From Mobula birostris (taxonomy: Eukaryota), in contig NC_092379.1 of assembly GCF_030028105.1 (NCBI RefSeq), positions 16,004,222 to 16,068,221 on the forward strand: a stretch of DNA of 64,000 bases, in the 5' to 3' direction. A program made the position numbers and the translations under genes. Position 1 is the first letter of the stretch; every line of letters starts with the position of its first letter. A model generated the notes under the pieces. That model did not search any database. It saw only the letters and a program-made list of their open reading frames with translations, and was not told the origin of the DNA. This document shows, one piece after another, positions 3,420 through 50,594 of this stretch.

Positions 3420-5945
3420 CCACAGATTCTAAATTGACCAAGGTGATATTTGATAGTATGAGCCAGCAGCTTGCAAAGGTTGATTGGAGTTGACTCTTTG
3501 CAGGCAAGGGGAGATAGTGAGACTTCAAACTCTGCATGTTCCTGTTAAAGTGTAGGGCAAGGCTGGTAGGAGTTTGGAATCCTGGATGGCAAGGGATATT
3601 GAGGCCCTGGCTAGGAAAAAGAAGGAAGCATGAATCAATATAATCAGCTGGAATCCCTGGAGGACAATAAGGGATACAAAAATGTACTCAAGAAGGAAAT
3701 CAGGAGAGGATTAATGGGGCAATAGATAATTTTGGCAGAGAAGATTAAGGAAAATCCAAAGAGATTGTGTTTATATTAAGGCTGAAAGTGTGACTAGACA
3801 GAGTAGGGCCTCTTAAAGACCTAGGGGACACCTTTGAGTGGAGCCAGAGGAAATGGACAAGATTCTTAGTATTTATATTTCTCCTCTGTTTTTATCCAAA
3901 ACACTGTGGGGGGCTTGAGATGAAATTGTGGGAGCCCAGGCTGAGATACTTGCCTCCTTGTTAGCCCCAGGTGGGGTACTGGTAGACAGGAGGTTAGCAA
4001 ATGTTGAACCTTTAAGAAGGATGACCAAGAAAAATCTGGGAATTTTAGGCCATTAAGTATAACATTTATGGTAGGTAAGTTACCTAAAAGGATTTTGGGA
4101 GATAAGATACATGTGTATCTAGAAATACTTGGGCTAGTAGGGGTAGACAGTGCGGCTTTGTGCATGAAAGATCATGTCTTATGAACATGGTTGAAGTTTT
4201 TGATGATATGAACAAGAAAATTGATGAAGGCAGAATGGTAGACATGGTTGATATAGACCAGTAAGCCTTTAAGGTTCCAAATTGTAGGCTGCCCTGGAAG
4301 GTAGGATGGTGTGGAATACGAGGAAGCTGGCTAAGTGGATATAGAATAGGCTTGATGGTAGAAAGCAGAGGGTAATGATAGAAAGTTGCTGCTAGGACTG
4401 CAGGCCTACGAGCAGTGGTCCACCTCAGGGGATTGGTGCTGGGCCCATTGTTCTTTGTCATCTATATCAATGATTAAATTAGATTATAGATTATTGAGGA
4501 CACGCAGTCCTCTTTTATTGTCATTTAGTAATGCATGCATTAAGAAATCATACAATATTGCTCCAGTGTGATATCACAAAACACAGGACAGACCGAGACT
4601 GAAAAACTAACAAAACCGCATAATTATAACGTATAGTTACAACAGTGCAACAATACCATAACTTGATGAAGAACAGGCCATAGCACAGTAAAAAAGTTCA
4701 AAGTCTCTCGAAAGTCCCACATCTCACGCAGACGGGAGAAGGAAGTAAACTCTCCCTGCCATGCCCGACCACAGTCCGACTCTGAGTTGTCCGAAAACTT
4801 CGAGCTCCGATCAGCCCTCCAACACCGAGTACCGAGTGCCATCTCTGCCGAACGCTTCGACGAACATGATTAATAAGTTTGCAGATGACACTAAAATACA
4901 GGGTACAGTGGACAATGAAGAAATTTAACAAAAATTTAAGGGGGATCTTGATCAACTGAGCATGTGGTTGAGGAATGGCAAAGGCAGTGTTGCATTTTAA
5001 AGTCAAATCCAGGTAGAAATTTTACAATGAAGGGCAGGGCCCTGTGAGTGTTATAGAACAGAGAGGGACCTTGGTACATGATTTACTGAAAGTGGAGTCA
5101 CAGGTAGATAGGATGGTGAAGAAGGCTTTTACCACACTGCTCTTCATAAGTCAGGGCATTGAGTATAAAAGTTGGGAGGTTGTGTGCAGTTATATGAGGT
5201 GAGGCCACACTTGGAGTATTATGTTCAGCTTTGGTCTCTCTGCTATAGGAAGTAAGTTATTAAACTAGTAAGAGTGCAGAAAAAAATGTAAGGATGTTTA
5301 GACAGACTAGGACTTTATTCCTTAGAGTGTAGGGGACTGAGAGGTGATCTTATAGAGGTGTATAAAATCATGAGAAGCATAGATATGGTGAATGTGCCCA
5401 CTTTTTCCCCCAGAGTTAAGTTATCAAGAACTTGAGGGCGTAGATTTATTAGAAACTTGAGGAGCTACATTTTTACACAAAAGGCTGTATGTATATGGAA
5501 TGAGCGGCCAGATGAGGTGGTTGATGCAGGTACAGGCAGGTACACAGAAAGGAAAAGTTTAAGTGGCTGATGGGCTAAATGCTGGCAAATGGGACCGGCT
5601 TAGATGGGGGATCTTGGTCAGGAAGGACCAGTTGAGCTGAAGGGTCTGTTTCTGTGCTGTTATGGGTCCAAATCATTTTAGCCAGAGGGTCATGGATCTA
5701 TGGAATTCGTTGTTTAGCCAGAGGATCGTGGATCTATGGAATTCGTTGCCACATACAGCTGTGGAGGCCCGATCATTGAGGGTGTTTAAGGAGGAGATTG
5801 ATAGGTATCTAATTAGTCAGGGTATCAAAGGATATGGGGAAAAAGCCAGAAATTGGAACTAGATGGGAGAATAGTATAGCTCATGGTGGAGCAGACTCAA
5901 TGGGCCGAATGGCCTACTTCTGCTCCTTTGTCTTGTGATCTTGTG
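3420..5945 (+). mobile_element. CR1 LINE ORF2 (RT) fragments, decayed, two stacked 3' ends
   Basis: RT motifs PQG(L)VLGPLFFVIYIND and KFADDT, C-terminal RPHLEY and GDLIEVYKIM, followed by CR1 3' UTRs. Confidence 0.85.
4478..4865 (-). mobile_element. Young CpG-rich retroposon 3' end inserted in CR1
   Basis: Interrupts the CR1 RT between YIND and KFADD. Minus-strand AATAAA and short-repeat tail resemble Rex1-type tails. Confidence 0.5.
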
Positions 5946-11801: not shown

Positions 11802-11966
<165 letters not shown>

Positions 11967-28725: not shown

Positions 28726-28783
28726 CACTCCAGTTTGGGATTGATCCCGTAATTAAAATGTCAAATTATTACGTTTGGCTTAC

Positions 28784-29053
28784 CTCAGTTGTGAAGAATG
28801 AAAACTAGATGAATTTTCTGTGAGGTCAGACTCAGAAGAAGTTCCCTCAGATATCACGACATCATCATTCGGAAATGTTTGTTTCAGTGAGGGTGATAGA
28901 GTTTCTGATTTGGTTGCTGAAGGTAATTGTATTATATCCTCAGATATACCGGATTCATCCTGACCAGAGAACTGAGCAAGCATCCTGTGGATAGCTTCAT
29001 AATAGGGCCAGTATGAAGAGGAAGCTGCACTTCCACACGTAGCCTTGAGTTTT
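28784..29053 (-). CDS. MSANTD1-like protein, coding exon 2
   Basis: caactag|A acceptor and AG|gtaagc donor; 270 nt, phase 2-2, no stop codons. Encodes (R)KLKATCGSAASSSYWPYYEAIHRMLAQ... followed by a Ser/acidic-rich linker. WPYY completes the trihelix Myb/SANT domain. Confidence 0.92.
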
Positions 29054-29949
29054 CTAGTTGAAATATGAAATATTAGTACAATGTGTTAATCATAAAGCTC
29101 AAAGAAAATAAGTTTAGTATTAAAATTTCATTAATAAGGATATTACATTACATAATTAAATGTTGAAGTTTTATTAGTCTATAAAATTAAATCAAAAGTC
29201 ATCTTGTCTGCCACAATGAAAGAGTAAGATTCAGAAGGTAAAGAAGTACCCTTTGTTTCCCGTAGGTTTTAACAATGCAGAGGTCATGCAGTTGTAGACA
29301 ATATAAAGGAATAGTCCTTGTACAGTTAACATGTACTGTATATTCAAAGTAGTAAGATTCTCAAATGACTGCAATAAAATCATAAACTTTCAATGTACAT
29401 GATAATTTGATAAACAAAATCATGATCTGAGAAGCACGTAGGCAGTAACCACTGATTATCATTTGCAGTAATAAGTTAGCTAAAAAAAGTGCATGAACTT
29501 GCAGCATCCATAATTTTCTTACATTGAATCGTAATTCTGTGTGTGGAATAGAGTCCGAGAGTCATAGAACACACTAGCAAGCCAGTCAGCATTACTCATC
29601 CCATGTTGACCACGATGCTGATCTAAACCGGTCCCATTTGTCTGCGTTTAGTCCAGATCCCTTTCTAAGCCTTTCCTATCCATGTGCCCATTCAAGTGTA
29701 TTTTAAATGTTTTAATTCAACCTGCCTCTACCAATTTGGCAGCTTGTTCCAAACGTACACCACCTGCTGTGTGGTGGGAAAAAGTCTTGGCTCTCACATC
29801 CCCTTTAAATCTTTCTTCCTCACCTCTAGTTTAGACTTGCCTGCCCTGGGGAAAACTGTGACTATTCATGAATTAGTTAGATGAATGAAACTGGTTTGTG
29901 TGGTAGATTTTCTGCTTGGAAGAAAATCTATGTCAGTAACACTGTTAAT

Positions 29950-39854: not shown

Positions 39855-40135
39855 TATCAGAATCAAGTTTATTATCACCGGCATGTGACGTGAGATTTGT
39901 TAATTTAGCAACAGCAATTCAATGCAATACATAATCTAGCAGAGAGGGAAAAAATAATAATAATAAATAAAACATAATAAGTAAATCAATTATGTATATT
40001 GAATAGATTTTTAAAATGTGCAAAAACAGAAATACTATATATTATAAAAAGTGAGGTAGTGTCCAAAGCTTCAAAGTCCATTTAGGAATCGGATGGCAGA
40101 GGGGAAGAAGCTATTCCTGAATCGCTGAGTGTGTG
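39855..40135 (-). mobile_element. Rex1 LINE 3' tail
   Basis: Closely similar to the 3' tail of the Rex1 copy at 57312-58445. Confidence 0.8.
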
Positions 40136-41077
40136 TATTCTCTAAGTTTTTTTAAACCAAAAACTTAAGAATAATAGGGGAGATTTTGTGCTTAACAATT
40201 CTAACTTACACTTCAAGGAAAAGCTGCCTTACAATTAACAAATCTTCCAGTATAGACTGCTGGGAAAATTCACTTTGTGAGGTCTTGTACATTAAGAAGC
40301 TGAAGGTATAAAGAGGTTATCAAAACTAGCTTTGTTCAATCAACAAGGTCGTGCTCCAGATTCAGTTTGTTAAAACACCAAAAACATTTTAAAAACATTC
40401 CCTTTCTGAATACTTCTGAAACATGTAAAATGGTTTTAAAATGTAAACATATTTAAATGAGATGAAAGATAAAAAAAATACTTGGGGAAAAAAACTAAAA
40501 TATTTACAACACTTCCAGTTTCAAACACCTTCACCACTTCAAATAATTTAAATTAGCAAGCTGCTAGAGGTTTATATGTAGAAAAAAAATGGCAAGATTT
40601 GAAAGAGTAGTTCTAAGTCTTAAATCATTTATTTCCATTAAAATCAATGAGAAAATATCTCTGATGCATACTGTCCAGGCAAGTTCTTATTATAAGTGAT
40701 GTTCCTCATTGAACACCCTAGTGACTCCAATGCTGGAAGGCAGTTTGGTGGCTCTTTCCGCTTGGATTTTGAACACAGATACACGGAATTCCAAATGTTA
40801 CCATCAGTTTTGCAGAGAAATGACTTGGTTTGCTGCAAGTTTCACCATTATTACTCTGCAAAATCCAGGCCGTTGCTTTCTAAATTCTTACATTAAACAC
40901 TCAATAAAATTTCCATGTTTTGTAGCTGCTCTAACAATAAAAGGAATGTTGCCATTTTCCAGAGATATTGATTATTCTTAGAATTGATGAGCAGTACCAA
41001 TATAATACAGAAAATAATTCTCATAGAAAGCAATACCTCAGGTTTAATACACTTTACAGTACGATTATAATGCTTAC

Positions 41078-41331
41078 CTGTACTGAAAGGTTAGATTAGT
41101 AACTTTAGTTCTTATTTGATCTTTATCACGGTTTATCCCAGTGGCTTCATAAAATTCTTCAGCTATCTTTTCATATACTTTAGCATTTCTCTTGGCTGTT
41201 CGAAGATCTGATAAATACTCATTCCATATACGTATCAGAACACTTGTTTCAACCTCAGTCCAGTTGCTTGATCGCTTTGGTTTGTCTATTTGAGCAGCTG
41301 ATCTATTGCTGCCACTGTTACAAGCTGCCAT
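41078..41331 (-). CDS. MSANTD1-like Myb/SANT DNA-binding protein, coding exon 1 (nested antisense in RYR1 intron)
   Basis: ATG in strong context (AAAATGG) with an in-frame TGA 15 nt upstream. Encodes ...KRSSNWTEVETSVLIRIWNEYLSDLRTAKRNAKVYEKIAEEFYEATGINRDKDQIRTKVTNLTFQY, resembling MSANTD1 RNWTDAEM...KRNAKVYEKMA...KITNMTFQYR. Donor AG|gtaagc, phase 2. Confidence 0.93.
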
Positions 41332-41354
41332 TTTGGAAATACATCAGCGTATCC

Positions 41355-41800
41355 GTGAGGAGAAGCTTTAAACATCTTATCTCAGAGTTCATGACTGATG
41401 GCTAATTGAAAAGCTTTTAAATTCTGGCAAGCATTTCTAAAACCCTTTTAGAACACATTCAAAAGGTTTTAGATAAAAGGATTGATGATGGATGACTAAC
41501 ATAATTTCTTTCAAGTAAAAGCTTTTGGATGAATGCTTCTAGAGTGTAACTGCCTGAAAAGGGTGCAGGATTTTGGCATTCCATTCTGTATTTAAATACT
41601 TAAAGCTTTTTCAGCTGGTGCCTGTTAGCTCTTGATGTAAAGTGCCTGTTGCCAGGGTAACATTGTATCAGTGATGGTCTAACACTGATGATGCTACTTT
41701 TCTTAAAAGCTTTTAATTGGTTCCCTTCATGAAATGAAGGTCGCTCTTAAATTCTAAAAGCTTTCAATTGAAACCATTGAATTAGCCATCTGTCAGAAGT
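41355..41800. promoter_or_regulatory. Palindrome-rich putative promoter/5' region of the MSANTD1-like gene
   Basis: AAGCTT cores at 41363, 41411, 41519, 41603, 41707 and 41758, mostly within AAAAGCTTTT. Variants are AAAAGGTTTT (41461) and TTCTAAAA-ccc-TTTTAGAA (41435-41453). Outer inverted repeat at 41392-41407 / 41780-41795. Lies directly 5' of the ATG with no recognisable TE sequence. Confidence 0.6.
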
Positions 41801-42599
41801 GTAATTGGTGTAATTAAGAGATGAAATCCTGAAATACATTTATTCCACGTGACTGGCTACATTGTGCTCAGTTTCAGTCAGATCAATGGAACTTAATTTC
41901 AGAGAATACTAACATCATAGTATGAAAAACAGTAATTCAGTTTTACTGTTTGCCTGATGCATTGAAAATATCATATAGATTTTTGATTCTAATTGTGACT
42001 TGACATATACCTTCTGGGCGATTTTGACACCAGAGCAGGTTCTAATGAAAAATTGCAACAATTGTTTTATAGTAAATAATTTCAAAGGTTCAAAGTTCAA
42101 AGGTTCAAAGGCTAATTTTATTGTCAAGTTATGCATGTACAATACAACTCTGATATTTGTCTTCTCCAGATAGCCATGAAATACAGAAAAACCATGAGAG
42201 TTGTTGAAAGAGAAGACATCAACACCCCCCCCACACACACACACACACAAAAAGAAATAGAATCAAAACTTGCAAACCCCAATACCTCCACCCCATCCCT
42301 TGTACAAAAAAACTAACAGATCACCCACATGGAAAATGGCAGCTAGAACATCAAAACCCCAAATCCCCAACCTCCTCCCTCTCAAAAAAGAACAGCAACA
42401 AAAGTATCAAACCTCAACTTACATCACAATATGTGACATGGTAAAATCTGCAGATATATTATAAAACATAAGGCACCTCCATGTAAAATGCCAGCAGCAA
42501 TTGCTCTTCATTTTGTCTATTAGGATGTGTCATTGTGTGTGTATTTGTGAACTGCTGTAAAAGAAAATTATATAAGCTTTAGATTTTCACAGTATCAAC

Positions 42600-49375: not shown

Positions 49376-49833
49376 TATAATGATAGCAAACAAAACCTAC
49401 ATCATTGTATCTACACTATCAACTTTGCCAGTGACCAAAGACTTAAATATAAACACAATTACAATTACAATTGTCCTTCACAGTCAGTGAAAGAATGTCC
49501 GTGTTCCACCAGCAGGGAAACCCAATGTCGTCACTTAATTCATTTATTTCAATTCTGGTTATGGAAGCATAGTGCAAAATTTGAAGGTGGCAGATCATGA
49601 ACATAACAAGTTGCTTTCCTGTGCAGTTGTGAGGTTTGTGAGGTTTGTGAACTGAGCATTAAAAGCTACAGAACATGTAATTAATTATGTTTGCTGTTAT
49701 AGTTTATAAATGTTATAGTAATTTATGCGTTGCTTAGTTTCATTCGAAGTACAATATTCCTTAAAGTTGATTTTCTTTATTATCCTCAGAGGAACTAGCC
49801 TGCTTGCTGACTTGTTTAATTGATTCCACTCAG

Positions 49834-49928
49834 GAATGCGAGGTTCTACTCCGTTGGACGTTGCGGCCGCCTCATGCATTGACAACAACGAACTTGCCCT
49901 CGCCCTGCGGGAACCAGATTTGGAAAAG
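49834..49928 (+). CDS. RYR1: RYR1-like internal exon (equivalent to exon 42)
   Basis: actcag|GA acceptor and AAG|gtaatg donor; 95 nt. G+GA = Gly, then [31 protein letters not shown]. It lacks the ASP(A/S) insertion of RYR2/RYR3, which supports RYR1. Confidence 0.96.
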
Positions 49929-49965
49929 GTAATGAAACTGGAATGGAACCCATGCATTTTTATCC

Positions 49966-50594
49966 AGCAACACACATCAAAGTTGCTGGTGAGCGCAGCA
50001 GGCCAGGCAGCATCTGTAGGAAGAGGTGCAGTCGACGTTTCAGGCCGAGACCCTTCGTCAGGACTAACATGGTATTTCTGTGTCTGACCAACACGTTATT
50101 GCATTTGTTACATTGATAGCTAGGAGGGCCATTTTGTTGAAGTGAAAGGATACATCAGCTCCCATTTTGTCACAATGGTTCTCTCAAGTGATGCTATGTC
50201 TTAGTTTGGAGAAAATTAGAAGTCGAACCTTTGAACCTTTATTTGATTTTGAGAAAAGATAGGGCTAATTTGCTCGTTATTATCATTTGAGCTAATTGAT
50301 AGATTTTTTCCACGATCTAATTGTAAATTTTTTGGTATATTTTCTTTTCTTGCTGGCGGTTTGATGGTTATTTTTAGAAGCTTTTTGTATGATGCATGGC
50401 TCCGGGGTTGTACAACTCCCCCCTCCCACTTTCAAATCTCTTACTAACTCTTCCTTCAGTTAGTCCTGACGAAGGGTCTCGGCCTGAAACGTCGACTGCA
50501 CCTCTTCCTACAGATGCTGCCTGGCCTGCTGCGTTCACCAGCAACTTTGATGTGTGTTGCTTGAATTTCCAGCATCTGCAGAATTCCTGTTGTT
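49966..50594 (+). mobile_element. Young fold-back Penelope insertion carrying an L1 fragment
   Basis: 13-bp TSD TGCATTTTTATCC (49953-49965, 50595-50607); 103-bp inverted arms 49966-50068 / 50459-50561 (102/103 identical). Confidence 0.9.
50462..50497 (+). ncRNA. Minimal hammerhead ribozyme motif, sense to RYR1 pre-mRNA (mirror copy at 50030-50065 on the minus strand)
   Basis: AGTC-CTGACGA-AGGGTCTCGGCCT-GAAA-CGTC-GACT; core intact, GUC triplet ending at 50493. Confidence 0.75.

Follow-up and report, generated by a model that had tools for sequence, protein, structure and literature searches.

A cluster of palindromic sites built on an AAGCTT core lies directly upstream of the MSANTD1 start codon in the window, that is, the whole 64,000-nucleotide stretch of Mobula birostris DNA analysed here. 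Judged by comparison with a related ray, a bird-like locus and human, the array is likely to be a cis-element of MSANTD1 of great age, and it is very probably a functional one. MSANTD1 is a little-studied human transcription factor adjoining the Huntington's disease gene, and a site cluster kept from ray to human points to a real regulator of MSANTD1.

The sequence-only reading of this DNA had proposed a palindrome cluster before the MSANTD1 ATG, and this is borne out. All eight sites (8/8) are found at the coordinates it gave, with AAGCTT cores at 41363, 41411, 41519, 41603, 41707 and 41758 (Table 1). There are six copies of AAAGCTTT in the 64 kb window, and five of them (5/6) fall inside 355 bp (41410-41764) upstream of the MSANTD1 start. 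No other 8-mer of the window is more strongly clustered; five copies in 355 bp were reached in none of 5000 dinucleotide shuffles of 40001-42500 (0/5000), and 1500 shuffles of the 499-bp block gave at most two copies of any palindromic 8-mer. Read from the centre outwards, the 14 ray half-sites have the consensus CTTTTAR, which gives the palindrome unit a length of up to 14 bp. The arrangement is not that of a tandem repeat, since head-to-tail copies with related spacers are missing, and Tandem Repeats Finder reports nothing over 41361-41766, in keeping with the earlier remark that the spacers are unrelated. That reading had also stressed gaps of about 50 and about 100 bp. The values it quoted (48, 52, 56, 104 and 51 bp) are right, but it omitted a gap of 84 bp, and the 50/100-bp spacing is not significant. 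The same is true of helical phasing of the sites (p 0.42-0.72 when the period was searched for, 0.06-0.11 when it was set to 10.5 bp).

We take the word at 41648-41661 to be RFX X-box-like by its consensus, and the words in 41777-41795 are presumably MEIS-like and E-box-like. The centre of the two 19-nt arms (41593.5) is also the centre of a 12-bp perfect palindrome at 41588-41599. Just outside the conserved block, a CACGTG E-box at 41846-41851 adjoins an A/T-rich word and may mark a core promoter.

Table 1. Features of the window; positions count from its first letter, and a point in the strand column marks features without a strand.
Feature	Positions	Strand	Remark
Reading frame with RYR1-like host exon before the nested gene	11802..11966	+	Rabbit RyR1 2222-2267
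MSANTD1 coding exon 3, predicted long C-terminal helix	20076..20348	-	Approximate limits
MSANTD1 coding exon 2	28783..29055	-	tblastn, approximate limits; spliced to exon 1 in run X19 contig
MSANTD1 coding exon 1, Myb/SANT trihelix domain	41077..41331	-	PF13837, E 6e-15; ATG at 41331
Conserved non-coding block	41332..41819	.	7 substitutions, 0 indels vs run X18
Palindrome array, half-site consensus CTTTTAR	41361..41766	.	Upstream of MSANTD1 start codon
Weakest site, AAGCTT core only	41363..41368	.	
Inverted repeat, left 19-nt arm	41392..41410	+	17/19 matching; arms flank most of the array
AAAAGCTTTT site	41409..41418	.	
Variant palindrome, 3-bp centre (CCC)	41435..41453	.	Similar word at L001 3985-4001 (16/17)
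AAAAGGTTTT variant	41461..41470	.	Same variant in L001 at 3727
AAAAGCTTTT site	41517..41526	.	
AAAGCTTT site	41602..41609	.	
RFX X-box-like word (presumed) within the array	41648..41661	.	Common to L001 3764-3777
Best site, 14-bp perfect palindrome TTAAAAGCTTTTAA	41703..41716	.	Identical at L001 3804-3817 and in human guide at MSANTD1
AAAAGCTTTC site	41756..41765	.	
Inverted repeat, right 19-nt arm	41777..41795	-	Carries MEIS-like and E-box-like words (presumed)
Reading frame with next RYR1-like host exon after the nested gene	49824..50084	+	Rabbit RyR1 2266-2300

The gene that the array precedes has three coding exons. The exon 1 protein is 100% identical to stingray MSANTD1 and those of exons 2 and 3 are 92-96% identical, while in the hit list a cartilaginous-fish set comes best, followed by tetrapod MSANTD1. 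Its start position and both intron positions are as in bony-vertebrate MSANTD1, where the intron positions were derived from the exon-skipping mammalian isoforms P0158, P0159 and P0165. The splice donor follows the same exon 1 codon in the bird-like locus L001 and in human guide 32, and the junction of exons 1 and 2 is present in a presumed-RNA contig (run X19); two presumed-RNA contigs end at 41323 and 41300 and are silent on transcription start. Word-limited searches returned no second cartilaginous-fish MSANTD1 copy among 41 hits or among the best 120 of 306. Because the start and both introns match and the 41 hits include no second copy, the ray gene is, on sequence comparison, probably the orthologue of bony-vertebrate MSANTD1. 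Its structural model resembles the Sap1, GT-1 and Zeste folds weakly, the fold search giving no match at E 0.001 or better, and a homodimer prediction scored 0.08, which carries no weight either way.

The locus differs from that of human. In the ray, MSANTD1 (minus strand) is nested antisense in one intron, about 38 kb long, flanked by consecutive exons of an RYR1-like host gene (plus strand, 11802-50084) that was mapped with 150 of 203 exon-like frames, and it does not hold the conserved position beside HTT. Human MSANTD1 lies downstream of HTT (PMC13396422), and the synteny figure published for the family shows human, mouse and gar only (PMC9392472). As the introns are common to both positions of MSANTD1, either a move at the DNA level or hidden paralogy is implied.

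Within rays, the block shows the constraint of a coding exon. Against run X18 it has 7 substitutions in 488 bases and no indel, fewer than the intron (65 of about 803 bases changed, p 6e-8) and fewer than the sequence upstream of it (18/274, p 4e-4), and its level equals that of exon 1 (4/255). The substitution rate is thus well under that of neutral flanks, which is one mark of a conserved non-coding element. These counts come from a single run, X18, out of four that were aligned from a set of 24 (the others being X15, X19 and X20), because only in X18 were all block differences visible; run X15 has 19 substitutions and 3 gap letters over 41042-41938, with 8 substitutions visible. The sequence-only reading had advised a check of whether the motifs are better kept than the spacers. 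Among rays no such difference is measurable, since the absence of the X18 substitutions from the motif cores (0/7) is at chance level (p 0.38).

A second mark of such an element, detectability at the same gene in distant vertebrates, is seen in a bird-like locus and in human. L001 was the sole locus from a metagenome scan with bony-vertebrate proteins, and its residues 1-89 are 100% identical to bird MSANTD1; other locus scans found no relative in metagenomes (with the ray exon as query), viral contigs or prokaryote genomes. Sites occur in L001 at 3671, 3727 (the GG variant) and 3806, and also at 3462, where the site lies within an A/T run and may be incidental; the start codon is at 4013. Near-matches to the 12-bp consensus number four in the 600 bp before the start against one in the other 7667 bp, a clustering that none of 2000 shuffles equalled (0/2000). 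In the ray and L001 arrays alike, an RFX-like box precedes the best site. The CCC-centred palindrome variant at L001 3985-4002 overlaps a likely splice acceptor right before the bird start codon. The start-codon context at 41323-41337 resembles what we take to be a YY1 site, and a similar word is found in L001 at about 3846.

For human, the evidence comes from guide 35, designed in a published HTT-silencing study against the 5' CpG island of MSANTD1 (PMC13396422). This guide contains the 14-bp palindrome of window 41703-41716, the one array copy seen at human MSANTD1, and matches L001 at 20/20 bases (guide 30, 18/20). The 12-mer occurs in 11 of about 8.4 million papers and MSANTD1 is named in 68; with both so rare, the match is unlikely to be due to chance. 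A dCas9-DNMT3A guide that falls on the best-conserved site, at L001 3802-3821, belonged to a pool that lowered HTT mRNA. Given that MSANTD1 sits in an RYR1 intron in the ray and beside HTT in human, the array follows MSANTD1 and not its neighbours. The earlier idea that array and gene were kept as one module therefore stands, the array recurring in a related ray and, on the look at other vertebrates' MSANTD1 promoters that the same reading had advised, in L001 and once in human despite the differing neighbourhood.

The shared core appears to be turned around between ray and bird. The ray block aligns to L001 with a score of 153 in the orientation opposite to the gene and 107 in the direct one, levels reached by 0/200 and 12/200 control pieces. 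When the motifs were held fixed, 1, 4 and 22 of 300 shuffles attained the inverted score under three scorings, and 174, 277 and 211 attained the direct score; the shuffle mask did not cover the first two bases of the RFX-like box, which biases the test slightly against the null in either orientation. The flanks of the shared palindrome alone gave p 0.03-0.04 inverted and 0.70 direct. The inverted core, made up of the RFX-like box and the palindrome, pairs window 41576-41740 with L001 3291-3843, and across these comparisons the inversion has p of about 0.003 to 0.07. A local inversion between ray and bird is, on these alignments, reasonably probable, and the 19-nt inverted arms of the ray block could be its breakpoints. 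Farther upstream, 42512-42560 and L001 3150-3200 (approximate positions) match weakly in direct orientation (E 0.05). Since the core seems inverted and RNA folding is not conserved, the comparison favours an element that works as double-stranded DNA.

MSANTD1 is derived from a Harbinger Myb-like gene (PMC9392472), and the Myb-like protein of zebrafish Harbinger3_DR binds a subterminal 9-bp motif (PMC9710019), which makes binding of the array by MSANTD1 itself a natural guess. Human MSANTD1 has a SMiLE-seq motif, ACTTAAGT (PMC13444138, supplement 11); five assay types are approved for the protein, and the matrix used here is the SMiLE-seq one. Its core, CTTAAG, which would mark an MSANTD1 binding site, has 0 occurrences in the ray array and 0 in the 1.4 kb before the L001 start. 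AAAGCTTT is the least variable part of the sites, with the TTAA flanks as the variable part, and under the human matrix it ranks 64th of 256 palindromic 8-mers. The full site TTAAAAGCTTTTAA falls in the top 3.3% of 14-bp palindromes (5.6% AT-weighted). It contains two weaker TTAA half-sites one helical turn apart, and it scores better than the core because each half has TTAA and differs from the best word by second-choice bases. The ray array has 9 matrix hits with a score of at least 6, where shuffles have 3.7 (7/200 reach 9); the excess is weaker in L001, with 8 hits to 4.6 (22/200 reach 8). Overlapping hits were counted twice. The sequence-only reading had held that a SELEX motif unrelated to AAGCTT would speak against self-binding. 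This is partly the case, the motif being ACTTAAGT, yet the longer site agrees with it in its TTAA flanks.

The same reading had pictured a coiled-coil dimer as the binder. Human MSANTD1 without the C-terminal helix and the full protein give similar k-mer enrichment (7-mer r 0.78), which makes the coiled coil dispensable for the known motif. Ray and chimaera have the same recognition helix (22/22), which matches that of bony vertebrates at 12/22 residues; the 14-bp site is the same in ray and human. From the motif, matrix and helix evidence, self-binding through paired weak half-sites emerges as the single most likely mechanism, close to another factor; that MSANTD1 binds the array has, on such sequence grounds, somewhat less than an even chance.

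Were MSANTD1 the binder, the two TTAA-centred half-sites of each TTAAAAGCTTTTAA, 10 bp apart, would lie on the same helix face, and when MSANTD1 is plentiful two Myb domains would occupy both half-sites together. Occupied sites would damp an RFX-driven promoter, and MSANTD1 would in this way limit its own transcription, the array likely serving as a double-stranded promoter element. Still further back, the sites may derive from the Myb-binding repeats at the ends of the Harbinger transposon that MSANTD1 came from. Searches of a mainly open-access literature turned up no account of the array, of a position nested in RYR1 or of autoregulation by MSANTD1, and the accessible part of PMC11842433 has nothing on the promoter.

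Descent of the sites from a Harbinger transposon end is, taken by itself, unlikely, if conceivable. The fuller version is more doubtful still: that the array is a surviving Harbinger end repeat, has formed a self-regulating module with its gene since the origin of jawed vertebrates, through a change of locus and an inversion, and is used by full-length MSANTD1 in a paired-half-site mode missed by the published motif. The 3' end of the gene showed neither an array nor a terminal repeat, and the 64 kb window no second copy of the block; the flanks of the 19-nt arms do not form a direct repeat, as a 3-bp target-site duplication would. One site falls outside the arms, and the bird has no such arms. 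The block is not at present a PIF/Harbinger element or a MITE, in view of the missing target-site duplication, the lack of motif repeats at both ends and its constraint.

Several other accounts of the array were weighed against binding by MSANTD1. The most serious, itself tentative, holds that a different, conserved dimeric factor recognises AAAGCTTT in a homotypic site cluster and acts with RFX on the MSANTD1 promoter, with the Harbinger-derived Myb proteins MSANTD2 and MSANTD4 as candidate binders. All the conservation evidence would fit this equally well, the invariant letters AAAGCTTT are not favoured by the human MSANTD1 matrix, and MSANTD4 has an approved motif. However, a literature search by sequence word found no factor with the array motif, and the best-kept site has on both sides TTAA, the core of the MSANTD1 motif. 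Alternatively, the A-tract palindromes might act without a dedicated binder, keeping the promoter open by DNA shape (bending or nucleosome exclusion). Each site does consist of a pair of short A-tracts, in several cases the gap comes close to a multiple of 10.4 bp, and an effect of shape would work in either orientation, but the phasing is not significant, and shape would hardly preserve 20/20 bases from bird to human or keep the G-C centre fixed, which leaves this account improbable.

Action of the block as a folded RNA, either as the MSANTD1 5' leader or within RYR1 pre-mRNA, is very improbable. The ray block gives a good fold (z -4.3 and -3.65; with motifs fixed, -2.9 and -1.9), whereas the bird block, at z +0.26, folds no better than shuffles, and the core seems inverted relative to the gene. 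None of the X18 changes (0/7) is compensatory, with 2/7 in predicted pairs on the minus strand and 3/7 on the plus strand; no Rfam family reaches its gathering score, three hits being sub-threshold, and 41332-41860 contains 13 upstream ATGs. That the array is neutral debris left by a recent MITE or fold-back insertion, or that the sites cluster by chance, is largely refuted by exon-level conservation and presence in bird and human, by the single copy in the window and by the lack of a target-site duplication beside the arms, even though 19-nt inverted arms surround most sites and the left half, compared with the reverse-complemented right half, gives a better alignment than 416 of 422 other centres do. 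Hardly more credible is a set of degenerate heat-shock elements. A heat-shock element has three or more alternating nGAAn units with a 5-bp period and the G kept; the extended array consensus has a 5-bp rhythm, but its central units are AAA/TTT and not GAA/TTC in 6/7 ray sites and in the best site of bird and human.

Ray and human lineages separated about 450 million years ago. If MSANTD1 binds the array, cis and trans parts of a transposon would have been co-opted jointly and would still be coupled; if another factor binds it, the array would be an orphan motif of 8-14 bp and about 450 million years. JRK and SETMAR are the only human proteins named as still binding their parent element in the available part of a recent source (PMC13538051). 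Human MSANTD1 ChIP-seq and GHT-SELEX data already exist and bear on either reading, and a published dCas9 guide meant to lower HTT coincides with the best site.

Conserved non-coding elements can carry homotypic clusters of factor sites. The array resembles such elements in its repeated sites, unrelated spacers, deep conservation and apparent orientation independence, and differs in that its motif is without an assigned factor in the literature searched. Compared with ACTTAAGT, it is likewise palindromic and AT-rich with TTAA as a core, its half-site CTTTTAA agreeing with the best word of the human MSANTD1 matrix at 5/7 places (PMC13444138), but its own core is fixed as AAGCTT and CTTAAG occurs in neither array. 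Relative to MSANTD1 as described (PMC9392472), the ray gene has the same domain plan, start and both intron positions, and lies antisense within an RYR1 intron, not beside HTT; the main text of that paper has 0 occurrences of 'binding site' and 'palindrom', and no mention of an upstream array was seen. Like the array, the subterminal repeats of Harbinger3_DR are copies of a short motif next to a Harbinger-derived Myb-like gene (PMC9710019, PMC2836001). Those repeats have shown binding and serve transposition, whereas the ray locus is without a transposase or an array at the other end and its sites are putative binding sites. JRK and SETMAR (PMC13538051) offer a further parallel, a transposon-derived DNA binder and possible cognate sites arriving together. 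Their sites are dispersed genomic fossils, in contrast to the MSANTD1 array, a single cluster conserved from ray to human at the 5' end of the gene itself.
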